Source: Clostridia bacterium
GTDB taxonomy: Bacteria; Bacillota; Clostridia; TANB77; CAG-508
Length of the DNA stretch: 49,094 bases
Direction of reading: 5' to 3'
Assembly (NCBI GenBank): GCA_017886645.1
Contig: JAGHJM010000068.1
Coordinates: 1 to 49,094 of the forward strand
Shown here: positions 30,474-45,972 of the stretch, piece by piece
Layout: each line of letters starts with the position of its first letter
How positions within the stretch are numbered: the stretch's first letter is position 1
Notes under the pieces: generated by a model
The model's input: the letters and a program-made list of their open reading frames with translations, nothing else
Databases searched by the model: none
Told to the model about the DNA's origin: nothing
Translations under genes and position numbers: made by a program

Positions 30474-30577
30474 ATATATAAGAAATAGAAGTACTGAAAT
30501 ATAGGCTTTTATAGCCTTTCGTATAGGAATAAATAGTTAATTATAAACTATAAAACTAATGATAGGAGATGATAAAT

Positions 30578-31955
30578 ATGAGAAAACAAAATGGAATAAC
30601 ATTAATTGCTTTAGTAGTAACAATTGTAGTTTTATTAATACTTGCAGGAATAACAATAAATACAGTAGTAGATAGAAATGGAGTTTTAGGGAAAGCTCAG
30701 CAAACACAAAATGATATAGAAGATTCTATAGCAGAATCCCAAGGAAAACTAGAAAATTTAATGGATGCCTACAATGAAATTTCTAGCGATAATTACTTTG
30801 GAATAGAAGAAACACACGATTTATCATCAATTACTATAAATATAGTAACAAATATAGAAGAAGAACGGAACAGAGTATGAATACTTTATAAATGGTGAAT
30901 CTGTAGGAAGAGGTGGAAATACAACACACATAGAAAATGTAACACTTTCAAATAAAGAACCATATATACCAAGTGGATTTGAGTATATAGAAGGAACAGT
31001 AGATACAGGATATGTTATAAAAGATACAACACTAGGAAATGAATTTGTATGGATACTAGTAGGAACGGGAACATTTACAGTATATGCAACATCAACAAAT
31101 GCAGAAGGAAAAGTAAGAACATCAAATGAAATAACAGTTGAGATATCAGAATTAACAAGAAACTTGAAGCAAGAAAATGGAGATATATTAGAATATACAG
31201 AATGGGAAGAAGTAGAAGGAGATATAAGTGATAAGAAAAGTATAGAATATTTTAAGAAGAGTGTATTTGAAAATGGCGGATTTTATATGGGAAGATATGA
31301 AATGGGAATGCCAGGACAAGAAAGTGGAGATGATCCAGTGCTTGCTTTAAATAGTGAATCTAGAAATATAAATGGAACACCAGTATGTGTAGCAAATGTA
31401 ATGCCTTGGAATTATATAGATTGGGATACAGCAAAAGAAAATTTAGAGAGCATGTATAATGGAGAAGTACAAAGTGCAATGCTAAATAGTTATGCTAGAA
31501 CAACAACCGTGAACTGGATTGGTGGAGGTATAGATGGAAATATGTCAGATACATTTTGGCCAGGAGGAAGCAGAGACTTGTATTTTAAAGGAAATTATAT
31601 AGTAACAAATTATTCAAACATTATAGAACAAGGTAATCAATTAAATTATATTAGAGGGGAATATTTCTTAGGAGCATCTCCTAATGGAGAGAGTGTATTA
31701 CTAGAAACGGGGGCTTTTATAAAAGATGGGGAAAATGGTAGTGAAACTCACTTCGTTGCAAATAATATATATGATTTAGTAGGAAACGCAGGAGAATGGT
31801 CCACAGAAAAAAGAAAAGATAATAATTCAAGAAGAATATCTGGAGGAAGTTTTACTTCTTCTTATGGATATACAACTGACGGAAACGCAAGTATATATCG
31901 TAGCGGTTTAACTGGAAGCCTTTCAACTTCATCTAGACCAATTCTATATAAATAA
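30578..31955 (+). CDS. Type IV pilin-like protein with C-terminal FGE-sulfatase/C-type-lectin-fold domain, about 458 aa, needing a +1 frame change at CGG-A (30866-30869)
   Basis: Prepilin-like 'KQNG|ITLIALVVTIVVLLILAG'; +1 frame open from 30867 to 31955 with 'YIPSGFEYIEG','GNEFVWI','GFYMGRYE','NIYDLVGNAGEWSTE','SRPILY'. Confidence 0.8.
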
Positions 31956-31962
31956 TTTAAAA

Positions 31963-31996
31963 GCAATAGAGATAATTTAAAATTATCTCTATTGTT
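31963..31996. terminator. Bidirectional terminator
   Basis: CAATAGAGATAATTT/AAATTATCTCTATTG inverted repeat between convergent genes. Confidence 0.75.
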
Positions 31997-32035
31997 TTGG
32001 CAATATAATTTTTTAAAGATATTATTAGCATTATT

Positions 32036-33091
32036 TTATGACTTAAATTCCTCTTGAATTTTTTGTATTTCATCATATTTATTATTCAATATATTCAAAA
32101 ATGCTTCTGCTATATTAGGGTCAAATTGTGTGCCAGAGCATCTTTTTATTTCTTGTTTTACATCTTCTATAAGCATTGCATTTCTGTAAGTTCTCTTAGA
32201 TGTCATAGCATCAAAACTATCGGCTACTGCGGCAATTCTAGCTAAATATGGAATTTGTTCACCAACAAGTTTAGATGGGTAACCATTACCATCATATCTT
32301 TCATGATGATGTTTAACAATTGGTAATATATTTTGGAAAACAATTGCATTACACAAGATGTGTGCACCTATTGATGGATGATTTTTTATTTGTGAATATT
32401 CGTCATCAGTTAGTTTAGCTTCTTTAAGTAAGATGCTATCAGGAATACCTATTTTACCAATGTCATGAAATAGACCACCTATTTCAAGTGTTTTTAAATC
32501 TTCAGAAGATACGCCTAATTCTTTACCTAATAGTACAGAAAAAGCAGAGACTCTATCTGAGTGACCTCTAGTATATGGATCCTTAGCTTCTACAGTATAT
32601 CTTAATGTTTGGACAGTATCCAAATAAGCCCTTTCTAATTTTTCATTTGTATTAGCAAGTTCTTCATTAATTCTTTTAATTTCATTCATTTGTTTTACAG
32701 ACTTAATTCCTGACTCAACAAGCAAAAGAAGTTGATCAAATTTATCGCTTTTTTCACAATACCCTTGAATATCAAGCCTTTTAATTGTTTCTAATGGTGG
32801 AGCTAAATCTTTATGTCCAGTTAATAATAAGATATATAATTCTTTATCAAATTTTCTTATTTCTTCAACTACTTTATCTCCATGTATAGGTTCCATTAAA
32901 TAGTCAAGAATCATTAAATCAAAGTGTTCATTTTTAACTAGTTCAATTGCTTCTAATGGATTTGTAACTCCTTTAAAAGAATAACCAGATCTATGCATAA
33001 ATATAGAAAGAGAATCTAAAATTCCTTGTTCGTCATCAACAGCAATTACCTTATAACCTATTGATGAATTAGATTGCATATGTGTTCTCAT
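32036..33091 (-). CDS. Response regulator, REC plus HD-GYP cyclic-di-GMP phosphodiesterase (RpfG-like)
   Basis: REC 'VIAVDDE','LMILDYLM'; HD-GYP 'YTRGHSDRV','HDIGKIG','HHERYDGNGYP','ADSFDAMTS'. Confidence 0.92.
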   Translation of the reverse strand: MRTHMQSNSSIGYKVIAVDDEQGILDSLSIFMHRSGYSFKGVTNPLEAIELVKNEHFDLMILDYLMEPIHGDKVVEEIRKFDKELYILLLTGHKDLAPPLETIKRLDIQGYCEKSDKFDQLLLLVESGIKSVKQMNEIKRINEELANTNEKLERAYLDTVQTLRYTVEAKDPYTRGHSDRVSAFSVLLGKELGVSSEDLKTLEIGGLFHDIGKIGIPDSILLKEAKLTDDEYSQIKNHPSIGAHILCNAIVFQNILPIVKHHHERYDGNGYPSKLVGEQIPYLARIAAVADSFDAMTSKRTYRNAMLIEDVKQEIKRCSGTQFDPNIAEAFLNILNNKYDEIQKIQEEFKS

Positions 33092-33114
33092 ATAGCCACC
33101 TCAATTCTGAATTT

Positions 33115-33143
33115 ATTATATAAATTTAAATTTAAAAAATCAA
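33115..33143 (-). promoter_or_regulatory. Internal sigma-A promoter for the HD-GYP regulator
   Basis: TTGATT-17 nt-TATAAT in the 122-bp gap after the kinase. Confidence 0.55.
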
Positions 33144-33213
33144 TAATATAATTAAAAACTATTTTATAAAATTAAAAACTGGTTTAAATAGTACTTGTAA
33201 GTAAATTAAACAA

Positions 33214-35223
33214 CTATTTTTCAGGTTTAGGTAAAGTAATATTAAAAGTAGTCCCTTCGTTTTCTTTAGTATCGAAAGTAATATTACCATTGAAATGTGC
33301 ACGAATTGTTGAATACGACATAAATAAGCCCAATCCTGTACCGTTTTTACCTTTTGTTGTAACCATTTCTTTAAATAATTTATCTTGCACTTCTTTAGGA
33401 AGTCCACTTGCATAGTCTCTTATAGAGATTATTATATTATTATCTATTTCCTTTATAATTAAATCTATAGATTTATTTGGAGTACCTTTATATGCTTGTA
33501 TAGAATTAGAAATCATATTGTTAATTACTTGTACTAAGCTATTTATATTTCCGTCTAAAGTAGTTAACGGATCAACTTCCATGATTAAATTTAGTGAAAC
33601 TAATGCACTTTTTAATTCATGTTTCATTAATATATCAATACGTTTTACCAGTTCGTCAACAGTAAAAGAATAATTTTGTTCATCAGACATATTAACAGCT
33701 TGTCCTTTAACAGCAGTTATAACATCAGACATATATTCTGTATATGAACGAATTTTTTCAATCCATGTTTGCATATCTTTAGCAATAGCGTGATGATCTT
33801 CTACTGTTACTTGTGAATCTTCTATGGATTCGTTATATTCTCTAATTAAATCCTCTAAACCTTCTGCAGCACCAGAAATTGACATGATTGGGGTTTTTAA
33901 GTTGTGTGCAATACCACCAATTAACTGTCCAAGAGATGCTAAACGTTCCTTTTCCATTAACATTTCTTGGTTATTTCTAATAGTCTGAAGATATTCTTGC
34001 TGTTGCCTTTGAATTTTATTAAATGCTATAACTAAATCTCCCATTTCATCATTAGATATAACAGGTAAATCTTTTGTATTGCCAGATTCATTTAAATAAA
34101 TTTTATTTAAACCGTCAGTTATTATTTTCAAATCTTTAGATAGTGATTTTCCAAATAGATATAAGACAAAGCCTAGCAAAACAAGAAGAATAAGCATATT
34201 AACTAATAAATATTCAAGTGAAGACCAAGATGCAATATCATATAAAATACCTACATACATTGTTCCATCTATAGTATTTAAACTCATTGTAGCACCTTGA
34301 GTATCAAGCCCATAGCTGTCAAATGTTTGACCATTATATTTATCTGATAATTGTAAAGTATATTCTTTTACAAAGTTAGAAGCCTCAGGACCTGTAAGAG
34401 TATATATAGTTCCATCAGGAAAAATTACAAATTTTGAATGATTTTCATTATCAAAAAGTTCTATATCTGCCAATAAATTTTTAATTTCATCATAAGTATA
34501 AGTAGTTTCTTCATTAAATACAGAATGTAAATATCTATTATAAACTGAAAAATAAATATCTTCCTTTTCATTTACAGCTCTTGAATATCCAACCAAAGAA
34601 GTAATTAAAACACCAGCAATAAAAAGAGGTAATAATTGTAAAAATATTTTTTTCCTTAAAGATACTCTAAAACCAATATTTAAATCCTTTGAATAAGTTT
34701 TCTCTAAAATTTCAGAATACAAATCTTTTGCAAAAAGATTTGAACATATTGATAAGATAATCAAAAAACAGGTAATTAGAAGACATATTTTTATAATCAT
34801 TATTACATCATGACTGCCTGTAATAAATAAAAATATAATAGTTAATATTAAAGGAACTATAATTTCACAAAATGCAATAATGTAAGGTAAATTAAAACAT
34901 TTTTTTCTAATTTTTTTTATTAAATTGGCATCCTGATACTTATATGCATCATTAAGAGCATACCATTTATCGATATCTCTTAATAGAAATTTAGTTATTG
35001 CCCATAGTGTAAACAATACAACAATAGATATTATAATAAATTGTTGGGCATAGCTAATATATGACATTTGAACATCAAAAGCACTATTAATAAACTCAGG
35101 TCCATAATTTAAAATTCTAGGTAGTGTTAAAGAAACTAGAATAAGTAAAATAACAGCAATTGTGCAATACCTAAAAGATATTCTTAAACTTGGAGTATTA
35201 CGAAATCTTTGCTTAAGTGTCAT
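33214..35223 (-). CDS. Multi-TM sensor histidine kinase (NtrB-like H box)
   Basis: About 6 hydrophobic segments, HAMP-like 'NDEMGDLVIAFN', 'ERLASLGQLIGGIAHNLKTPI', 'NMISNS', 'TTKGKNGTGLGL'. Confidence 0.92.
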   Translation of the reverse strand: MTLKQRFRNTPSLRISFRYCTIAVILLILVSLTLPRILNYGPEFINSAFDVQMSYISYAQQFIIISIVVLFTLWAITKFLLRDIDKWYALNDAYKYQDANLIKKIRKKCFNLPYIIAFCEIIVPLILTIIFLFITGSHDVIMIIKICLLITCFLIILSICSNLFAKDLYSEILEKTYSKDLNIGFRVSLRKKIFLQLLPLFIAGVLITSLVGYSRAVNEKEDIYFSVYNRYLHSVFNEETTYTYDEIKNLLADIELFDNENHSKFVIFPDGTIYTLTGPEASNFVKEYTLQLSDKYNGQTFDSYGLDTQGATMSLNTIDGTMYVGILYDIASWSSLEYLLVNMLILLVLLGFVLYLFGKSLSKDLKIITDGLNKIYLNESGNTKDLPVISNDEMGDLVIAFNKIQRQQQEYLQTIRNNQEMLMEKERLASLGQLIGGIAHNLKTPIMSISGAAEGLEDLIREYNESIEDSQVTVEDHHAIAKDMQTWIEKIRSYTEYMSDVITAVKGQAVNMSDEQNYSFTVDELVKRIDILMKHELKSALVSLNLIMEVDPLTTLDGNINSLVQVINNMISNSIQAYKGTPNKSIDLIIKEIDNNIIISIRDYASGLPKEVQDKLFKEMVTTKGKNGTGLGLFMSYSTIRAHFNGNITFDTKENEGTTFNITLPKPEK

Positions 35224-35237
35224 AAAAATCTCTCCTT

Positions 35238-38200
35238 TTAATTAATAAAGTGTGTTTTTTTCATATAATCAAGTAGCTTTTTAATATAATCACTATCCGG
35301 ATATGGCCACTTAAAATTTAGTTTTTCTAAATATTTTTGTGTAAAATCTGACTTTATGTGCACAGTATAATCATAATTTAAAGTTAGTAAATGATTAGAA
35401 TTATAGGTAACATCATTAATAATATAACTTAAACTAGAATCGCTTTCAGATGAAAGCATATGAAGTCTTTCGTCAAATTCTTTTTCAGATAATATACTAA
35501 TTAAAACATTAGACTTTTTAAAAGAAACTATTAAGTCTTTTATACTAACTAAATTAGGATTATATAAGTTATATATTTTATTATTACAATCAGATTGTTT
35601 GGCTAATAATACAATTGCACCAGCACAATAATCTATAGGAGTAAATTCTATCATTTGAGGTAACATACTATCTGTTACTGCTCCTATTTGCACCATTGAT
35701 TTCAATCTATTGTAAAAAGCATTTTCATAAATTTTTTCTTGGAACATTCCATCAGAATAACGTGCAGATAAAATTCCAATTCTATGTATTTGTGCAATTA
35801 ATCCTTTTTCCATATATGATAATACTATTTTTTCTGATTCAAATTTACTATTTACATATACATTATCAGTATAATGTTGACCTATATATAGTGTATTTTC
35901 AGAAAAAGTAACATCTCTATTACATTGTTTTACTAAATAATTTCCTGAAACACTAATAGAAGAAATATGAATTAATCTCTTTTTATATGCAAATGCGAAA
36001 GCACTAATACTTTTTGTACCATTAATATTTATTTTTTCAAAGTCACTAAAAGATCCATAATGTTTTACTATAGCAGCTGTATGTATAATTGTTGAAAATT
36101 TATTAATGTATGTATTAAATACTGAAATATCTATTCCAAAGTTAGGAAGAGTAACATCTCCTGACACAACTATAATTCTATCGTTAATATATTTAGAAAT
36201 ATCAGTATTAAAATAAAATTTGTATGCTTTAGTTAATCTTTCTAAAGAATGTTCATAACTTCTTCCTCTAACTAAACAGTAAATGGTATTATTAGTTGTA
36301 TTTAGAAGTTCATATAAAACATGAATTCCCACGAAACCATTTGAACCTGTAAGGAAAACATTTCCTAAAGTATCGTCGTCTATATTTATATTGTTTAAAG
36401 CCTCTTCTAAATTAGCATTTGTATGCTTAAATTGCTTTGGAATCTGCACATCTTGCTCGTCGAAATTAGATATATTTGCATCTATTCTTTGTGATAATTT
36501 TTTTATTGTAGGATATTTATAAAAATCCTGAGTAGTAAGTACATAATTATATTTTAAAAGCATGGTTTGGGCCTTAATTATATTCAAAGAGTCTAATCCT
36601 AAATCTAAAAATGAAGAATTAATATTTAATTTCTTTTTACCTAAAATATTTGTTATAACTTCTGCTAATTGTTTTTCTGTTTTAGTAGAAGGTTCTTCAA
36701 TATTTTGTTCTTCAGAAGGTATTTCTGGAAGAAGATTTCTATTTAATTTTCCATTAGGAGTTAATGGAATAGAAGGTATTTTAATAAAATATGCCGGAAT
36801 CATATAGTTAGGTAAACTTTCTAATAAATATGAAGTAATTTCTGAAAAATTACATTCTTTATTAGCAACATAGTAACAAACTAAAAATTTGTTATCTTTA
36901 GCTAATACGACTGCATCTTTAATTCCATTAAAGCCTAGTATTTTTGTTTGGATTTCTTCTAGTTCTATTCTATAGCCTCTTATTTTTACTTGAAAATCAG
37001 TCCTTCCAAGATGTACAATTTCTCCATTATAGTCAATATAAGCAAGGTCATTTGTATTATATATTATTTCACCGGTTTTGAAAGGAGAAGGTTTAAATTT
37101 ATCATTTGTAAGCTCATCTCTATTCCAGTAACCAGGACATACACCATCTCCACCAATATATAGTTCCCCTGGAACACCTGGTGGTAAAATATTCATATCT
37201 TTATCTAAAATATAACATGTTGTATTAGTAATAGGAATACCTACTGTAATTTTTGACGATTTTGTTAAGTCCTTAATAGTAGACCATACTGTAGTTTCTG
37301 TAGGTCCATACATATTAAATATATTTGCATGTACATTTGTACGTAATTTTTGTAGTAATAGTTTAGGAAACGGCTCTCCGCCAACCATAATGTCACTAAA
37401 TATATTCCAAAAATCATCATCTTTATCAATATCTGCTAAAATAGCAGAATATCTTGAAGGAGTAGTTTGAATCATTGTGACATTATTCTTTTCACACAAT
37501 TCTTTTAATTTAAATGGAGAAACCTGTTCTACATCACTTGCAAGAACTAACTTTATACCGCTAGTTAATGCTCCCCATATTTCTAATGCAAAAATATCAA
37601 AACAAATAGTTGTAACAGATACCATAACTTTATTTTTAGAAAAATTAATATATTGCTTTTCTCCTAAGATAAAATTAGTAATATTTTGATGAGTAATCAT
37701 TACACCTTTTGGTTTTCCAGTAGAACCAGAAGTATAAATTAAGTATATTAAATCTCTAGGATTAATTTTTATGTTTAAATTATTAGTATTTTGATTATTG
37801 TAAAAATCCGAATTAATATCTACATTTATTTTTGTATAATTATCACCAATATTTAAGTTTAAAGTAGCAGAATGCACTAATATAGTTTTTGAATGGCTAT
37901 CTTCAAGCATATAATTAATTCTCTCAATAGGATATTCTGGGTCAATTGGCAAATATGTTGCTCCTAACTTTAATACAGCTAAAATAGCAATAATCATTTC
38001 AGAAGAACGATGTATCATAATACCTACAACATCTTTAGCTTTAATACCATTATCTAACAAATAATAGGCTAATTGATTTGCTTTTTTATTTAGTTCTTTA
38101 TAAGTAAAAGACTGATCTTCAAAAATTAAAGCAATATTATTTGGATTTTTTTTAACTTGCTTTTCAAACAAATCAATAACAGTAAGTGTTTTATTATAAT

Positions 38201-39554
38201 CCATATAAGTATTATTGAAATCATTTAAAATAAAATTTTTTTCTTCTGGGGTAATAATTTCAATATCTTTAATTAACAAATTATTAGATGATAATAACTG
38301 CGAAATTATATAGCATATTCTATTATGCAAACGTACAATATCTTCTTGAGTATATTTATTCATACGATAATCGTATGCTATATTTAAAATACCTTCATCA
38401 TTCATGTCAAACAAATGAATTTGCATAGAATCTGCAACATTTTTGTTAAATGTCCATCTTACTTCATAGTCAATATCAGAACTATTTCTGTTTGTTTTTG
38501 TATTTTGATAAGAAATTAAAATATCATATAAGTTAGGTTGAGAAGGATTATTTTTTCTAATGTATTCTAATATATTTTCATATGGATATTTTTGGTGTCT
38601 AAACATACTTAAAGCATCAAATGCAATATTTTTACATAAATCAATAAAACTATAATTTTTATCAATAAAAAATTTAAAAGGAAGTGTACTTATAAACATT
38701 CCTGGGGTATTTTTTTCAACAAAATTAGATCTATTTAAAATAGGAGTACCTATTATAAATTTTTCTAAAGAAGTAACTTTACTAATGTAGATTGCATAAA
38801 TACCCATAAAAAAGTTAAATACAGAAATTTTATATTTTGAGCAAAATTCATTAATTAATTTCATATTAGAATTAGAAATTGTAAATGATTTTCTATTTGC
38901 TCTGCAAGAGACCGTATTTTCATCTTTAATAGAAGGAATAGATGCTACTTCATAATTAGTAGAAAATATCTCTTCCCAATATTCTTTATCTTTTCTAAAT
39001 TTTGTATCAGAAAAGTATGATTTTTCTGAATTTATATAATTAATATAAGATGTTGGGGAATCTGTAGAATCTATACCTTGTACCAATGAAGAGTAAATTG
39101 TTATAATTTTACTTGCAACTAAACTTGCAGTACAAGCGTCGGCTACTAAATGGTGGGCGTTAACAATAAAACCACCAGAATTATCTTTAAAACGAAATAA
39201 TTGAATTTTAAAAAGTTGAGAATCAACTAAAGAAAATGGAATTGATGCTATTTTATTTTCCAATAACAATAAATCATCATAACTATTTAATAAAATAATA
39301 GGGTCACTATCTAAAATATAGTCATTAGAAAAATATTGCTTATATTCCTGCTTATCATTTAAGGTTAAACGAATTCTAAAACTATCATTTTCTTTTAAAA
39401 ATATATGAATTGCATTAATTAGTTTTTCAAAATTAATTTTTTCTTTTATTAGTACAGTTCCACAAATATTATTAACTGTAGTATTTTTATAGAACTGTTC
39501 TGTATATAATATTGCTTTTTGTGGACTAGTTAAATTATATAAATTTTTCCCCAT
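35238..39554 (-). CDS. Monomodular NRPS, C-A-T-R (terminal thioester reductase)
   Basis: C 'HHLVADA'; A 'YTSGSTGKPKG','NMYGPTETT','QVKIRGYRIE','PLTPNGK'; T 'FLDLGLDSL'; R 'FLTGSNGFVG','YVNSK'; start could extend to 39566. Confidence 0.93.
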   Translation of the reverse strand: MGKNLYNLTSPQKAILYTEQFYKNTTVNNICGTVLIKEKINFEKLINAIHIFLKENDSFRIRLTLNDKQEYKQYFSNDYILDSDPIILLNSYDDLLLLENKIASIPFSLVDSQLFKIQLFRFKDNSGGFIVNAHHLVADACTASLVASKIITIYSSLVQGIDSTDSPTSYINYINSEKSYFSDTKFRKDKEYWEEIFSTNYEVASIPSIKDENTVSCRANRKSFTISNSNMKLINEFCSKYKISVFNFFMGIYAIYISKVTSLEKFIIGTPILNRSNFVEKNTPGMFISTLPFKFFIDKNYSFIDLCKNIAFDALSMFRHQKYPYENILEYIRKNNPSQPNLYDILISYQNTKTNRNSSDIDYEVRWTFNKNVADSMQIHLFDMNDEGILNIAYDYRMNKYTQEDIVRLHNRICYIISQLLSSNNLLIKDIEIITPEEKNFILNDFNNTYMDYNKTLTVIDLFEKQVKKNPNNIALIFEDQSFTYKELNKKANQLAYYLLDNGIKAKDVVGIMIHRSSEMIIAILAVLKLGATYLPIDPEYPIERINYMLEDSHSKTILVHSATLNLNIGDNYTKINVDINSDFYNNQNTNNLNIKINPRDLIYLIYTSGSTGKPKGVMITHQNITNFILGEKQYINFSKNKVMVSVTTICFDIFALEIWGALTSGIKLVLASDVEQVSPFKLKELCEKNNVTMIQTTPSRYSAILADIDKDDDFWNIFSDIMVGGEPFPKLLLQKLRTNVHANIFNMYGPTETTVWSTIKDLTKSSKITVGIPITNTTCYILDKDMNILPPGVPGELYIGGDGVCPGYWNRDELTNDKFKPSPFKTGEIIYNTNDLAYIDYNGEIVHLGRTDFQVKIRGYRIELEEIQTKILGFNGIKDAVVLAKDNKFLVCYYVANKECNFSEITSYLLESLPNYMIPAYFIKIPSIPLTPNGKLNRNLLPEIPSEEQNIEEPSTKTEKQLAEVITNILGKKKLNINSSFLDLGLDSLNIIKAQTMLLKYNYVLTTQDFYKYPTIKKLSQRIDANISNFDEQDVQIPKQFKHTNANLEEALNNINIDDDTLGNVFLTGSNGFVGIHVLYELLNTTNNTIYCLVRGRSYEHSLERLTKAYKFYFNTDISKYINDRIIVVSGDVTLPNFGIDISVFNTYINKFSTIIHTAAIVKHYGSFSDFEKININGTKSISAFAFAYKKRLIHISSISVSGNYLVKQCNRDVTFSENTLYIGQHYTDNVYVNSKFESEKIVLSYMEKGLIAQIHRIGILSARYSDGMFQEKIYENAFYNRLKSMVQIGAVTDSMLPQMIEFTPIDYCAGAIVLLAKQSDCNNKIYNLYNPNLVSIKDLIVSFKKSNVLISILSEKEFDERLHMLSSESDSSLSYIINDVTYNSNHLLTLNYDYTVHIKSDFTQKYLEKLNFKWPYPDSDYIKKLLDYMKKTHFIN

Positions 39555-39579
39555 AATTATCACCAATTTTATAAAGTAT

Positions 39580-41289
39580 TTAATTATTACTATTACGTAA
39601 ATTAATCTTTTTTAATTCTTCGCTTCTTTTTATCTTTTGCGTGGTAGTCTTAATTAAAGGCTCATTAGTTAAAGTGAATTTTCTTATATATTTATATATT
39701 GGAAGATTTTTATTAATCATACTAATTTCATTAGTAATTTTATCATGTAATAAATTTTCGTCCATATTTAAAGAAGAGATATATTCTTTAGAATAAACAA
39801 TTTCTGCACATATTTTTTCATTTTCTTCATAAACCATACTTTCTAAAATATAGTCAGACTTATTTAACAAATCCTCTAATTCCTGTGGAAAAACTTTTTT
39901 TCCATTTGAAAGTACAATAACATCTTTTTTTCTACCAGTAATAAATAAACGTCCTTTTTTATCAAAATGGCCAATATCACCAGTATAAAACCATCCATCT
40001 ATTATTGATTTTTTAGTTAAATCTTCATTGTTGTAATAACCCAACATGATGTTTGGTCCTTTAACTAAAATTTCTCCGTCACCGTTGGAATCAGGATTAT
40101 TAATTTTTACTTGTAAATTATGCAAAGGATATCCACAACATCCTGATGCATCATGATATTTGTCACTTTCACAAGATATAACAGGAGAAGTCTCAGTTAA
40201 GCCATAACCTTGAATCATATCAATTCCAATTGAATTAAATAATTTAATTTTCTTTTTATCAGATGAGGCAGAACCATAAATAATTGTTCTAAGATTTCCT
40301 CCTAAGTTATCCAGAACTTCCTTAAAGAATTTTCTTCTTAAGTCTATACCAAAAAATCTTAAGAAGTTTGAAACTTTACACATTATCATAAATAAAGTAT
40401 ATTTTTTCTTTTTCTTAACTCCCTTAATAATTTGTTTGTACATAATATCAATTAATGCTGGAACACAAACTAATCCACTAATTTTATATTCGATTAAGTT
40501 TTTACCAATATCTTTTATGCTATCTGCAAAACATATTCTAAAACCTACATAATAGCAGAATAAGAAACTTGCAGTACAAGCAAGAGTATGATGTAATGGT
40601 AAAAATACTAATATACTATCATTAGGTTCATATTTAATTAAAGTAGTCATTGCGGAAACATTTGAACAAATATTATATTGTGATAGCATAACAGCTTTAG
40701 GATTGCCTGTTGTACCAGATGTATATAATAAAACTGATAATTTATCTTTATCTATTTTTATAGAATCATATTTAGTATCATTAGAATCTAAAAAAGATTT
40801 CCCTTTATTTAAAAGACGACAATAAGATAGTATGTTATCTTCGTCTGAAGGAAAATCCATACAAATACAATATTTTAAGTTTGTATTATTAGAATTAAGT
40901 AGGTCTTTTATTAACTTAAGATGTTTTGAGTCAAAAATAACAGCATCAACTTTACTGTTAACTATTAAAGTTGATAATTCAACATCAGGAGATAAATGAT
41001 CTAATGGAACTACAATGTTATTAGAGGTCGATATAGCAAAATAGCTAGTACACCATTCATATCTAGGTGAAGAAATTAAAGCTATTTTTTTATCAATTAA
41101 CCCCATATTTAGTAAAGCGGTTCCTATAGACTTAATATCATATTTAAAATCATTAAATGAAATATCATATAATTTTTTATTCGAATCTTTTATTGTAAAT
41201 GCAATTTTATCTCCAAATTCCTTAGTAGTGATATCAATTAATTGTCTGAAATCATTGGCAGTTTTTTCGCTATAAATTTTGTTTTTCAT
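39580..41289 (-). CDS. Long-chain fatty acyl-CoA/AMP ligase
   Basis: 'LLYTSGTTGNPKAVML','FLPLHH','QGYGLTETSP','GWFYTGDIG','ITGRKKDVIVLSNGKKVFP'; AGGAG SD before ATG 41289. Confidence 0.9.
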   Translation of the reverse strand: MKNKIYSEKTANDFRQLIDITTKEFGDKIAFTIKDSNKKLYDISFNDFKYDIKSIGTALLNMGLIDKKIALISSPRYEWCTSYFAISTSNNIVVPLDHLSPDVELSTLIVNSKVDAVIFDSKHLKLIKDLLNSNNTNLKYCICMDFPSDEDNILSYCRLLNKGKSFLDSNDTKYDSIKIDKDKLSVLLYTSGTTGNPKAVMLSQYNICSNVSAMTTLIKYEPNDSILVFLPLHHTLACTASFLFCYYVGFRICFADSIKDIGKNLIEYKISGLVCVPALIDIMYKQIIKGVKKKKKYTLFMIMCKVSNFLRFFGIDLRRKFFKEVLDNLGGNLRTIIYGSASSDKKKIKLFNSIGIDMIQGYGLTETSPVISCESDKYHDASGCCGYPLHNLQVKINNPDSNGDGEILVKGPNIMLGYYNNEDLTKKSIIDGWFYTGDIGHFDKKGRLFITGRKKDVIVLSNGKKVFPQELEDLLNKSDYILESMVYEENEKICAEIVYSKEYISSLNMDENLLHDKITNEISMINKNLPIYKYIRKFTLTNEPLIKTTTQKIKRSEELKKINLRNSNN

Positions 41290-41494
41290 ACCAAAATCTC
41301 CTACACTCAAAATATCAAACTCATTTTATCATTTTATATTTTATTATACAACACTTTTGTTAATAAATTATTCTAAAAAATGCAGTAGGAAAGCTAATTT
41401 AGTTAAATTATACTAAATAATAAAGTGAAGTTTTTGTTTAAAAAAAATAATTGTGTTTAAAATATAAATATGAAAGGAAAGTGATATAAAAAAT

Positions 41495-42631
41495 ATGGCA
41501 AAATACATAAAAAGAGAAAAAAGTAAAAAAGCAAAAAAATACTTATTAGGAATAATAATAAGCTTTTTAATTATATTAGTAATTGCACTATTATATCAAA
41601 TGTATATAAAAATAGATGTAAAAGAAGAAAATGAAGGATTTTCTGCCGAAAGAACCGTACAAACAGTAGAAACAAATGAAAATATAACAACAGTACTGGA
41701 AAATACTACACAATGCGTTGTAGGAATATCTAAATTAAAAAATACAGGAAGTACCATATTTTTAAACGATGGTGTTAGCCAATTAGGATTGGGAAGCGGA
41801 GTTATAATAACAGAAAATGGGTATATTTTGTCAAATGAACATGTAACAGGAGAAAAATATAGTACATGCTATGTTACATTAGAAGATGGTAGAAACTACA
41901 AAGCAAATGTAGTGTGGTCAGACTCAAATATAGATTTATCAATATCTAAAATTAATATGACAGGATTGCCATATGCTAATCTTGGAAATTCTGAAAATAT
42001 AAGAATAGGACAAAGTGTTTATGCAATAGGAAATCCAATTGGATTTGAATTTCAAAGGACAGTAACAGCAGGGATTATAAGTGCAGTTGATAGAACAATA
42101 AAAATAGACGAAGAAGATGAAAATGGAAATGAAATTACATCTTATATGGATGATTTAATACAAACAGATGCTACAATTAATAAAGGAAATAGTGGAGGAC
42201 CACTAATAAATGAAAATGGGGAGATTATAGGAATAACATCTGTAAAAATTACATCTGCAGAGGGAATTGGGTTTGCAGTACCAATAAATATAATAAAACC
42301 AATCATAGATAAATATAAAACAGACGGAAAATTTGAAGAAGCAACACTAGGAATTTTTGCATATGATAAAAATATAATTCCATATATAGATTCAAATATA
42401 AGTTTAGATAAAGGAATTTATGTAGCTCAAATAGTAAATTACTCACCAGCAAGTAAAGCTAATTTAAAGGTGGGAGATGTAATAGAAAAAATTGATGATG
42501 TAGAACTAAATAAAATGAGCGATTTAAGAAGATATATTTATCAGAAAAATCCAGGAGATAAAGTAAATTTAACAATATATAGGAATAAAAAAGAGTATAA
42601 TATAGAAATAACTCTTGGAAAAAAATCATGA
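41495..42631 (+). CDS. htrA: HtrA-family serine protease with PDZ domain
   Basis: TM anchor, 'GSGVII','LSNEHV','IQTDATINKGNSGGPL', C-terminal PDZ. Confidence 0.93.
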   Translation: MAKYIKREKSKKAKKYLLGIIISFLIILVIALLYQMYIKIDVKEENEGFSAERTVQTVETNENITTVLENTTQCVVGISKLKNTGSTIFLNDGVSQLGLGSGVIITENGYILSNEHVTGEKYSTCYVTLEDGRNYKANVVWSDSNIDLSISKINMTGLPYANLGNSENIRIGQSVYAIGNPIGFEFQRTVTAGIISAVDRTIKIDEEDENGNEITSYMDDLIQTDATINKGNSGGPLINENGEIIGITSVKITSAEGIGFAVPINIIKPIIDKYKTDGKFEEATLGIFAYDKNIIPYIDSNISLDKGIYVAQIVNYSPASKANLKVGDVIEKIDDVELNKMSDLRRYIYQKNPGDKVNLTIYRNKKEYNIEITLGKKS

Positions 42632-44313: not shown

Positions 44314-44976
44314 ATGAAAACGATATTAATTGTAGAAGATAATATTGATATTCATAACTTAATACAAGAAATTTTACAAAAAGAAAATTATAGAGTTATA
44401 AATAGTTATTCAGGAACAGAAGCTTTAATGATGCTAGAAAAAGAAAAAATAGATTTAATTTTATTAGATTTAATGCTTCCTGGATTAAGCGGAGAAGAAA
44501 TTATAAAAAAAGTAAAAAATATTCCTATTATAGTTATTAGTGCAAAAATATCTCCGGAAGATAAAGTAAATGTATTGCTAAATGGGGCAAATGACTATAT
44601 AACAAAACCATTTAATAAAGAAGAACTTTTAGCAAGAATTAAAGTTCAATTAAGAATTAACGCAGATAGAAAAGAAAGAAAAGAGTTGAAGTATAAGGAT
44701 ATGTATTTAAAAGAAGACAAACATACCTTATATATTAAAGATAGAAAATTACATTTAACTAAAACAGAATATGCGATATTAAAACAATTACTTATAAATC
44801 CAAAAGAAGTAGTAACAAAGAGCAAATTACTTGAATTAATTAGCGATGATACTTTAGATTGTGATGAAAACTCATTAAAAGTTCATATAAGTAATATAAG
44901 AAAGAAAATACGAAGTGTAACTCAAGAAGAATATATAGAATCTGTATGGGGCATAGGGTTTAAAATTCACGAGTAA
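44314..44976 (+). CDS. OmpR-family response regulator
   Basis: 'ILIVEDN','LILLDLMLP','GANDYITKPF', winged helix 'KVHISNIRKK..IESVWGIGF'. Confidence 0.95.
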   Translation: MKTILIVEDNIDIHNLIQEILQKENYRVINSYSGTEALMMLEKEKIDLILLDLMLPGLSGEEIIKKVKNIPIIVISAKISPEDKVNVLLNGANDYITKPFNKEELLARIKVQLRINADRKERKELKYKDMYLKEDKHTLYIKDRKLHLTKTEYAILKQLLINPKEVVTKSKLLELISDDTLDCDENSLKVHISNIRKKIRSVTQEEYIESVWGIGFKIHE

Positions 44977-44978
44977 AA

Positions 44979-45022
44979 TCTTAACTGAATTTTAACTATT
45001 TTCTTAACCGATTTCTTAACTA
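44979..45022 (+). promoter_or_regulatory. Four direct repeats (TTAAC core), probable OmpR-type binding sites
   Basis: TTAAC at 44981, 44992, 45004 and 45016, upstream of the ABC gene. Confidence 0.6.
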
Positions 45023-45057
45023 TTTAATAATAAAATAAATATTGAGAGGAGGAGGTT

Positions 45058-45972
45058 ATGGAATATATATTAGAAACACATAATTTAGAAAAAAAATATG
45101 GTCGTTTTAAAGTATTAAGCAATTTAAATATGCACATACCAAAAGGTTCTATATATGGACTTATTGGGAAAAATGGTGCAGGTAAAACTACATTAATTAG
45201 AATAGTTTGTGGATTACAAAAACCAACATTGGGGACATACACTTTGTATGGAATTTCAAATGAAAGTCGTAAGATAATTAATGCAAGAAAAAGAATAGGA
45301 GCAATTATAGAATCTCCATCAATATGTCTTGACATGACAGCAGAAGATAATTTAAAAGAGCAGTATAAAGTCATAGGGATTCCTAATTTTGATAATTTAC
45401 ATGAAATATTAAAACTAGTAAGGTTAGACGATACGGGGAAAAAGACTGCAAAACATTTTTCTTTAGGAATGAAACAAAGATTAGCAATAGCAATAGCATT
45501 AGTAGGAAATCCAGATTTACTTATTTTAGATGAACCTATAAACGGACTAGACCCAGAAGGAATTATTGAGATTAGAGAATTAATTTTAAAATTAAATAAA
45601 GAAAAAGGAATTACTTTTCTAATCTCAAGCCATTATTTAGATGAGCTATCTAAAATTGCAACATGTTATGGCTTCATCGATAAATGTAGAATTGTTAAAG
45701 AAATTAGTAGTGAGGAATTAGAGCAAAATTTTAGAAAGAAAACACAAATAAATGTAAACAACGTAAAAGAATGTGTTAAATATTTAGAAGAAAATAAAAT
45801 ACAGTATAAAGTTATTTCTGATGAAATAATTGATATATATGATAAAATAAACATTTCAGACTTTGTTATTGCACTTTCTAAAAGAGATTGTATAGTAAAT
45901 AACATGCAAGAAAAAGACGAATCTCTTGAAAACTATTATTTGAATTTAATAGGAGGTGCAGACAATGTATAA
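45058..45972 (+). CDS. BcrA/LanF-like ABC transporter ATP-binding protein
   Basis: GKNGAGKTT, FSLGMKQRL, ILDEPINGLDP, ISSH. Confidence 0.92.
   Translation: MEYILETHNLEKKYGRFKVLSNLNMHIPKGSIYGLIGKNGAGKTTLIRIVCGLQKPTLGTYTLYGISNESRKIINARKRIGAIIESPSICLDMTAEDNLKEQYKVIGIPNFDNLHEILKLVRLDDTGKKTAKHFSLGMKQRLAIAIALVGNPDLLILDEPINGLDPEGIIEIRELILKLNKEKGITFLISSHYLDELSKIATCYGFIDKCRIVKEISSEELEQNFRKKTQINVNNVKECVKYLEENKIQYKVISDEIIDIYDKINISDFVIALSKRDCIVNNMQEKDESLENYYLNLIGGADNV

Follow-up and report, generated by a model that had tools for sequence, protein, structure and literature searches.

A variable synthase-sensor cassette at an NRPS, histidine kinase and HD-GYP regulator locus of gut Clostridia: a candidate self-signalling module

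The window analysed here (the whole stretch of 49,094 nucleotides, positions 1 to 49,094 of contig JAGHJM010000068.1 in the Clostridia bacterium assembly GCA_017886645.1) carries on its minus strand a gene for a reductase-terminated non-ribosomal peptide synthetase (NRPS), followed by genes for a membrane histidine kinase (HK) and for a response regulator that joins a receiver (REC) domain to an HD-GYP domain. Comparison with the corresponding loci of other genomes showed that the kinase core, the regulator and the flanking genes follow species relatedness, and that the NRPS and the sensor half of the kinase form one variable cassette. Because the synteny of these genes is near-obligate, because the block is replaced at the junction between sensor and kinase core, and because sensor similarity tracks NRPS specificity against the species tree, we propose, with a probability of roughly 0.55, that the locus is a self-signalling module composed of a synthase and its matched receptor, in which the kinase would sense the product of the neighbouring NRPS and signal through the HD-GYP regulator. 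The window corresponds to contig C20 of a 1.46-Mb metagenome-assembled genome (MAG) comprising 116 contigs and estimated to be 81% complete, and its G+C content is low (about 23-30%). The system was found in most members of a widespread uncultured gut lineage with genomes of 1-2 Mb, and the retention of a 4-7 kb NRPS gene in genomes of this size implies strong selection.

Linkage of the genes and co-variation of synthase and sensor

The features concerned are as follows, with coordinates referring to the window.

33993..41494, no strand assigned: variable cassette comprising the ligase, the NRPS and the kinase sensor half, substituted as a unit in close relatives (blastn)
35238..39566, minus strand: single-module NRPS of 1442 amino acids (aa) with condensation (C), adenylation (A), thiolation (T) and reductase (R) domains in the order C-A-T-R (Pfam Condensation, AMP-binding, PP-binding, NAD_binding_4)
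38229-39542, 36747-38168, 36483-36671 and 35244-36362, minus strand: approximate extents of the C, A, T and thioester reductase domains of the NRPS, respectively (Pfam)
33994..35223, minus strand: sensor half of the kinase (residues 1-410), with six transmembrane (TM) helices, an extracytoplasmic alpha/beta domain and a HAMP-like linker as predicted by AlphaFold2
33214..33993, minus strand: kinase core, with the dimerization and histidine phosphotransfer (DHp) domain bearing the phospho-acceptor histidine, and the catalytic (CA) domain (Pfam HisKA, HATPase_c)
32036..33091, minus strand: response regulator with REC (32720-33049) and HD-GYP (32111-32599) domains (Pfam PF00072 Response_reg, PF13487 HD_5)
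39580..41289, minus strand: acyl-CoA-synthetase-like ligase of the ANL superfamily, 569 aa (Pfam AMP-binding, 6e-60, and AMP-binding_C_3)

In a genome collection holding one genome per species, an NRPS homolog was present in 39 of 41 relatives and, order-wide, in 199 of 251 genomes covering 37 of 39 genera. The kinase adjoined the NRPS in all 18 single-module loci, the match to the window kinase being full-length in 14 of these and confined to the core in four, and in 20 further single-module loci the NRPS was followed by a kinase in every case (20/20) and by an HD-GYP gene in 17, one of the three misses being due to a contig end. At multi-module loci, a kinase core lay downstream of the NRPS in 17 of 20 cases (the misses being two contig ends and one 81-aa remnant) and a full HD-GYP regulator followed, likewise in 17 of 20. 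The relationship was also examined from the kinase outwards in a sample of 80 loci on public contigs, all belonging to MAGs of uncultured Clostridia from human, chicken, rabbit, sheep and goat guts and including Clostridium sp. CAG:389. Here the NRPS was found directly upstream on the same strand in 75/75 loci whose upstream sequence extended to 3 kb or more, and an HD-GYP gene downstream in 71/77. The linkage of NRPS to kinase and regulator in related genomes, for which the original prediction had suggested a synteny search, is thus near-exceptionless. The typical order is htrA - (ligase) - NRPS - HK - REC-HD-GYP - tex, and the recurrence of this arrangement in every related locus examined places it far beyond chance. 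Two high-quality genomes without the NRPS (G241 and G041) also lacked the kinase and a full REC-HD-GYP gene near tex. The genomes G248, G008 and G015 were considered as evidence of co-loss and dropped, as tex was also lacking and the region is probably unassembled.

Outside the order, a strong NRPS homolog was detected in 29 of about 290 Clostridia genomes sampled. Eighteen of these loci were fetched, of which 17 could be tested, and nine of them, from seven families, showed a kinase core and a REC...HD-GYP regulator directly downstream of the NRPS; tblastn probes for HtrA and Tex found neither in the fetched flanks of these triads.

The boundaries of the variable cassette were delineated by comparison with close relatives. 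In blastn alignments with the nearest related loci (L036 and L047), identity was about 80% over 32036-33992, only scattered weak matches were seen over 33993-41494, and an identity of about 77-79% resumed from 41495 or 41678. Relative to the window genome, the nearest related genomes, G020 and G017, shared 94% and 93% identity in Tex, 86% in the HD-GYP regulator and 83% in the kinase core, but only 24% in the sensor, and their NRPS at the same locus is dimodular, with the architecture C-A-T-C-A-T-R. A sliding window along the kinase placed the climb in identity, from 20-35% to 100%, at residues ~405-420 (around window position 33992), which corresponds to the HAMP/DHp junction, and a similar jump was observed in the kinases of other genome pairs.

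The sensors fall into two classes according to the architecture of the accompanying NRPS. The window sensor is of class I, consisting of six TM helices, an extracytoplasmic domain (ECD) and HAMP (6TM-ECD-HAMP), whereas the kinases that partner multi-module NRPSs carry class II sensors defined by Pfam HisKA_7TM and PAS; no relationship was apparent between the two classes (hhalign probability 0.5%). Across 122 distinct loci, class I sensors occurred with a single-module NRPS in 58 cases and with a multi-module NRPS in one, while class II sensors occurred with a multi-module NRPS in 52 cases and with a terminal NRPS open reading frame (ORF) shorter than 1600 aa in nine, three of which were split-gene fragments; the remaining two loci were truncated where the fetched sequence ended.

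Within class I, sensor similarity followed the specificity code of the A domain and not taxonomy. Loci from other genera that share the glycine-type code of the window NRPS (described below) encode sensors 55, 50 and 43% identical and NRPSs 57, 53 and 49% identical to those of the window, with kinase cores at 61-65%, as compared with 30-32% for the sensors and 73-74% for the cores of loci from the same genus with other codes. Over all pairs, sensor and core identity were 47% and 63%, respectively, for inter-genus pairs sharing a code (n = 33), and 29% and 69% where the code differed between members of one genus (n = 232 pairs). Among loci of a single code group, identity was 83-87% in the sensor and 85-89% in the core, so that rapid evolution alone does not account for the divergence of the sensor. 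In a partial Mantel test relating sensor identity to NRPS identity with core identity controlled for, r was 0.69 for 55 loci and 0.60 for the 47 loci left after removal of near-duplicates, the observed r being reached in 0 of 5000 permutations in both sets, although these figures and the contingency counts given above overstate significance because neighbouring genes that recombine together diverge in parallel even if they are functionally uncoupled, and because the genomes, being related, are not independent; they describe a pattern and are not true probabilities. Taken as a comparison of sequences, this co-variation supports, but does not prove, sensing of the NRPS product by the kinase.

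Several variants of the locus were noted. In L026 (genome G032) the unit is rearranged, with the kinase upstream of the NRPS, the ligase directly downstream of it and the HD-GYP gene divergent, the four genes still lying together. A second, paralogous NRPS-HK-regulator locus occurs within the same genus as L029 (G004, contig C18) and L030 (G013), G004 having both loci; it shows another A-domain code, a class I-like sensor of ~29% identity and a REC domain followed by a ~200-aa output domain without a Pfam family. The regulators of nine loci outside the order (L165, L166, L167, L169 and L176-L180) contain ~400 nt of extra coding sequence between REC and HD-GYP, i.e. an additional middle domain. 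In G041 (100% complete), an HD-GYP ORF of 232 aa without REC (L164, contig C11) lies away from tex and may be left over from a lost unit.

Encoded proteins and layout of the locus

All four Pfam families of the NRPS (PF00668, PF00501, PF00550 and PF07993) were matched above their cut-offs. Against NCBIfam, the AA-adenyl-dom model was above cut-off, the thioester-reductase model reached 189.5 bits, under its cut-off of 213.35, and the best match, aureusimine synthetase AusA, remained far under cut-off. The catalytic motifs HHLVADA, GLDSL, GSNGFVG and YVNSK are present, and the T-domain serine, the C-domain xHxxxD and the R-domain motifs were retained in 39/39 single-module NRPSs. On comparison with 14 dimodular relatives, the C domain, with a mean identity of 42.7% to the N-terminal and of 24.7% to the internal C domains, was assigned to the starter-position clade. 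Starter C domains of lipopeptide synthetases acylate the first residue.

The specificity code of the A domain, read at ten positions anchored on motifs A4, A5 and A10 and mapped by the PheA numbering, is DILQMGMVWK. Judged by these residues, the code fits the glycine signature. The passages of PMC12283262, a 2025 survey of A-domain signatures, on glycine-activating domains give the code DILQLGMIWK, together with the glycine-type variants Leu/Met299, Leu/Met322, Ile/Val330 and Trp331. The glycine module of LgrA was tried as a pocket reference and set aside: it is the best PDB match overall, but its pocket residues differ from those of the window NRPS and therefore speak neither for nor against glycine. 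With one module and a glycine-type code, the window NRPS cannot make a dipeptide or a pyrazinone. The expected enzyme-bound intermediate would be an N-acyl-glycyl-S-carrier, which the reductase would release as an aldehyde or, by reducing it twice, as an alcohol. One candidate phosphopantetheinyl transferase was found in the 81%-complete genome, an ACPS-family match in a 134-aa ORF on contig C39. Some related NRPS genes (G002 L050, G024, G119, G125 and G260) are split into two ORFs or contain internal stops, which could reflect decay or MAG assembly error.

The ligase gave as its best NCBIfam match a long-chain-fatty-acid--CoA ligase, all top NCBIfam models being under cut-off. Its PDB relatives are luciferase, 4CL, MenE and FadD13 (1.6e-31 to 1e-25), and identification as a fatty acyl-AMP ligase (FAAL) was ruled against, as the CoA ligases and luciferases are closer than the FAAL 3pbk (only 7e-15). 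Most single-module loci lack the gene, and most multi-module loci carry it in divergent orientation (protein identity 43-47%); a co-oriented ortholog (65-69% identical) was found only in G057, G096, G155 and G226, all of one other genus. The ligase had been counted among the four genes of the unit; by this distribution it is not a conserved member, and it is best described as an accessory one.

An AlphaFold2 model of the sensor built from 27 orthologous sequences (predicted local distance difference test, pLDDT, 86.4; predicted template-modelling score, pTM, 0.77) places an alpha/beta domain of ~95 aa, predicted to be extracytoplasmic, between TM5 and TM6. No Pfam family was recognized in residues 1-410 beyond a sub-threshold HAMP match (E 0.083), and a Foldseek search of the model against the PDB returned nothing at E<=0.001, the weak matches being to Cache/PDC-type ligand-binding domains. 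A protein-atlas search with the sensor gave only unnamed or HAMP/Cache-labelled clusters (0.90-0.93), which serve as leads only. A group-conservation scan of the sensor for specificity-determining positions revealed no clear clustering, whether in a particular helix or in the extracytoplasmic domain. The H-box was retained in 56/56 kinases.

In the regulator, the REC acceptor aspartate and the motifs HDIGK and HHERYDGNGYP are intact, and among orthologous regulators HD and HHExxDGxGYP were each kept in 42/43. The best PDB relatives of the HD-GYP domain are the phosphodiesterase V-cGAP3 (5z7c, 3e-40), which acts on cyclic GMP-AMP (cGAMP), and the cyclic di-GMP (c-di-GMP) phosphodiesterase PmGH (4mcw, 4e-38); the substrate could be c-di-GMP or 3'3'-cGAMP. 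The genome also encodes one EAL protein, a second HD_5 protein and a PilB-like ATPase ORF with a weak MshEN match (28.6 bits). GGDEF matches were obtained in all 41 relatives, with canonical full-length domains (100-150 bits) in families f2 and f3 and in G035 of f4. A 308-aa protein of the window genome (L151:3050-3976, contig C9) combines a REC-like with a GGDEF-family domain in which GGDDF replaces GG(D/E)EF, and could also be targeted by the kinase. Comparably sized proteins showing this partial GGDEF match were present in most of the 40 relatives searched.

Four minus-strand ORFs fill 32036-41310 in the order ligase, NRPS, HK and REC-HD-GYP, separated by 25 nt between ligase and NRPS (13 nt if the NRPS starts at TTG), 14 nt between NRPS and HK and 122 nt between HK and regulator. 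The ligase gene runs from 41289 to 39580, its ATG at 41289 being preceded by an AGGAGA ribosome-binding site (the mechanical ORF begins with TTG at 41310), and the NRPS gene from 39554 or 39566 to 35238, the likely start being the ATG at 39554 with GGTGA just before it; the HK gene runs from 35223 to 33214 and the regulator gene from 33091 to 32036. Two putative signals delimit the unit:

31994..31964, minus strand: terminator-like hairpin with a 14-bp stem, 3 G-C pairs and a T-rich tail, 42 nt past the stop codon of the HD-GYP gene
41290..41494, no strand assigned: divergent promoter region between the ligase gene and htrA, recognized by consensus matches only

The hairpin faces the 3' end of a convergent plus-strand ORF (31164-31955) and is common to both; terminator-like sites in the region numbered six, against 2.2 expected from shuffles. 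A TGTATAAT-like element, likewise a consensus match only, lies upstream of the ligase ribosome-binding site. The unit is flanked by housekeeping genes, with htrA and hsp20 next to the ligase end and tex beyond the regulator end, and Pfam searches and flank annotation revealed no DNA-binding regulator, exporter or tailoring gene inside it. ORF calling and the reading of start sites thus agree with the original prediction of four co-oriented genes with gaps of 25, 14 and 122 nt, a shared downstream terminator (here the hairpin facing the convergent ORF) and no DNA-binding regulator, exporter or tailoring enzyme within the unit.

Between tex and the HD-GYP gene (30569-31955) lie two ORFs, one of 103 aa bearing a prepilin N-methylation motif and the other of 263 aa without a family; these look like a local insertion, since the tex-regulator spacing is only ~100 bp in G057 (L051). 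On the other side, htrA (41495-42631; trypsin-like protease with PDZ) is conserved next to the NRPS in divergent orientation at most loci, family f5 included, and a functional tie between the NRPS product and HtrA is conceivable, given that aldehydes are typical protease inhibitors. Just beyond hsp20 (44314-45972) are an OmpR-type response regulator and an ABC-transporter ATPase, which as far as examined lie outside the conserved unit.

In public sequence runs, the window stretch was nearly complete in 17 DNA runs, mostly labelled chicken gut and from about eight studies, and partial in two metatranscriptome runs. Contigs from the RNA libraries span the NRPS/HK junction (35111-35620) and the HK/regulator gap (33004-33583 and 32963-33338), with none over 31401-32202 and 38218-39420. 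The bridging contigs are compatible with co-transcription.

What the kinase may sense

In the mechanism we propose, the NRPS, aided here by the adjacent ligase, would build a small N-acylated amino aldehyde or amino alcohol, which in the window genome would be N-acyl-glycinal or, by a second reduction, N-acyl-ethanolamine. The membrane kinase, encoded 14 nt downstream, would detect this product or a direct derivative through its sensor of six TM helices and extracytoplasmic domain, and would alter the phosphorylation of the REC-HD-GYP protein and thereby the breakdown of a cyclic dinucleotide, either c-di-GMP or 3'3'-cGAMP. Alternative cassettes, each pairing a synthase with its sensor half, would replace one another at a single chromosomal site, and related species would therefore use different 'dialects', in the manner of the agr and ComQXP pherotypes. 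We infer in this scheme the structure of the product, its binding by the kinase, phosphotransfer from kinase to regulator, the nucleotide that is hydrolysed and a possible dependence on cell density.

A number of observations weigh against sensing of the NRPS product, in addition to the non-independence that inflates the statistics above. The coupling between code and sensor has exceptions: G035 and G039 share a code, yet their sensors are only 36 and 34% identical, and G117 and G222 have near-identical codes, yet sensors of 27% and 17%. Either something beyond the amino acid, such as the acyl chain, matters too, or the coupling is looser than proposed. The linkage has exceptions as well, with the HD-GYP gene missing downstream in 6/77 kinase-anchored loci, no HD-GYP within the fetched flanks of seven f2/f3 loci (L020, L021, L024, L025, L027, L028 and L070), and neither kinase nor regulator at 8 of the 17 NRPS loci that could be tested beyond the order. 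The regulator lacks a DNA-binding output, and the unit encodes no exporter. Work by Guo and colleagues in 2017 reportedly identified the products of related dimodular gut NRPSs as inhibitors of host proteases, which suggests an outward-directed role. The RNA-library contigs are no proof of transcription or of a single transcript, as DNA carry-over is possible and both runs come from one study.

The nucleotide side is the weakest part of the scheme. The GGDEF set of the 81%-complete genome consists of two degenerate proteins, one with GGDDF and one without the motif; no PilZ was found in that genome, and no c-di-GMP riboswitch was detected by Rfam on the window or by RF01051 and RF01786 on the genome, the RF01051 negative being weak because its control was positive in no control genome. 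Of the c-di-GMP circuit originally envisaged, the REC-HD-GYP protein is present, but c-di-GMP itself is uncertain in view of the degenerate GGDEF proteins, the lack of PilZ and riboswitch hits and a best solved relative that is specific for cGAMP.

One alternative holds that the product is not the ligand: the kinase would read an external gut cue from host, diet or other microbes, and the product would be an outward effector, for example a protease-inhibiting aldehyde, the two being co-inherited as one adaptive programme while the sensor diverges inside a recombining block. We consider this unlikely, though credible. A regulator without a DNA-binding domain offers no obvious route back to transcription of the NRPS, the extracytoplasmic domain of the sensor weakly resembles Cache/PDC domains, which recognize many small metabolites (no Foldseek match being significant), and the sensors of some same-code loci are dissimilar. 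The position of the NRPS directly upstream of the kinase in 75/75 loci argues the other way, as do the non-homologous sensor classes matched to NRPS architecture (58/1 versus 9/52), the tracking of the A-domain code by the sensor across genera, opposite to the trend of the kinase core, and the finding that the sensor is not intrinsically hypervariable, remaining at 83-87% against 85-89% for the core within one code group.

Sensing of a consequence of the product or of its flux, through membrane perturbation, export or loading, or inhibition of HtrA, would make the system a self-protection or feedback loop and not a means of cell-cell signalling. This appears rather improbable: generic damage sensing needs no replacement of the sensor matched to NRPS type, code-specific sensor similarity would be unexpected, and htrA and tex have the appearance of conserved backbone genes on either side of an insertion site. 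The modelled sensor is nonetheless mostly a multi-TM bundle, which would suit intramembrane sensing of a lipid product, and the lack of an exporter in the unit and the conservation of htrA as divergent neighbour of the NRPS in most loci point in the same direction. The htrA-tex site is clearly a recombination hot spot, and the two-component system might merely flank it as a point of NRPS insertion, the association having no functional meaning. Such an explanation is barely tenable, since the triad recurs in seven other families where HtrA and Tex were not found in the fetched flanks (tblastn), the association survives rearrangement in L026, the two high-quality NRPS-less genomes also lack the kinase and the full REC-HD-GYP near tex, and a kinase-regulator pair without NRPS was seen in 0/75 testable loci.

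Self-signalling through the NRPS product therefore remains the reading that we prefer for the window locus. A wider proposition, possible but held with less than even confidence, is that throughout the order and in at least seven further families of Clostridia reductase-terminated NRPSs act as autoinducer synthases hard-wired to a matched kinase and a cyclic-dinucleotide phosphodiesterase, with cassettes swapped as private dialects; the dipeptide aldehyde and pyrazinone products of gut bacteria would then be primarily self-signals, and the lipid of the window genome might be readable by the host. If true, self-signalling would give a testable native role to a gut NRPS family so far known for its effects on host proteases and would predict species-specific chemical dialects in animal gut communities. 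The loci also provide dozens of natural synthase/sensor pairs for studying how membrane kinases recognize small lipidated ligands.

Comparison with known systems

The original prediction had not recognized this architecture as one described in Clostridia, and a literature search likewise found no paper describing an NRPS-HK-HD-GYP unit or its behaviour as a cassette, although figures or supplements of gut NRPS papers (e.g. Guo et al. 2017) could show the neighbouring genes. The closest known enzymes are those of gut Clostridia making dipeptide aldehydes and pyrazinones. The passages of PMC12327764 on gut NRPSs refer to ruminopeptin from Ruminococcus bromii and to the dipeptide aldehydes of the Fischbach laboratory. 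These enzymes are also reductase-terminated, and the dimodular C-A-T-C-A-T-R of the relatives matches their architecture, whereas the window enzyme has a single module and a glycine-type code.

Among signalling systems, CqsA/CqsS of Vibrio and LqsA/LqsS of Legionella comprise a synthase that links a fatty acyl group with a unit derived from an amino acid and, encoded by an adjoining gene, a six-TM kinase that senses the hydrophobic product. The class I sensor likewise has six predicted TM helices. CqsA, however, is an acyl-CoA transferase dependent on pyridoxal phosphate and not an NRPS, CqsS is a hybrid kinase that feeds a phosphorelay to a transcription factor, and a Pfam search of the window kinase found no sequence relationship to systems of this type.

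The diffusible signal factor (DSF) system of Xanthomonas, formed by RpfB, RpfF, RpfC and RpfG, places genes for a lipid-type signal beside a multi-TM kinase and a REC-HD-GYP protein, and its logic had been invoked for the window locus. The resemblance stands for the acyl-CoA-ligase family gene, the multi-TM sensor kinase and the REC-HD-GYP regulator. It fails for the synthase, as the unit has no crotonase-type RpfF; for the kinase, which contains HisKA and HATPase_c only and is not a REC/HPt hybrid of the RpfC type; and for the ligase, which is not conserved across loci. The lineage, moreover, is one of Gram-positive-type Clostridia. Rpf/DSF can thus serve as an analogy only.

In agr of Staphylococcus and ComQXP of Bacillus, the signal genes together with the N-terminal, sensing half of the kinase make up a hypervariable block, the kinase core and the regulator are conserved, and alternative blocks occur among close relatives. 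The window locus is organized in the same way, with synthase and sensor half varying as a block beside a conserved kinase core and regulator. It differs in that its signal would be non-ribosomal and not a processed ribosomal peptide, in that its output is an HD-GYP phosphodiesterase and not a DNA-binding regulator, and in that its alternative sensors come from unrelated families (6TM-ECD-HAMP and HisKA_7TM-PAS). Although the locus belongs to none of the agr, ComQXP, CqsA/CqsS and Rpf/DSF families, a pherotype cassette of the agr/ComQXP type appears, by analogy of organization, to be a closer parallel than Rpf/DSF. If the kinase does sense the product of its NRPS, the locus would represent both a non-ribosomal counterpart of the peptide pherotype systems and a Gram-positive counterpart of DSF-to-HD-GYP signalling.

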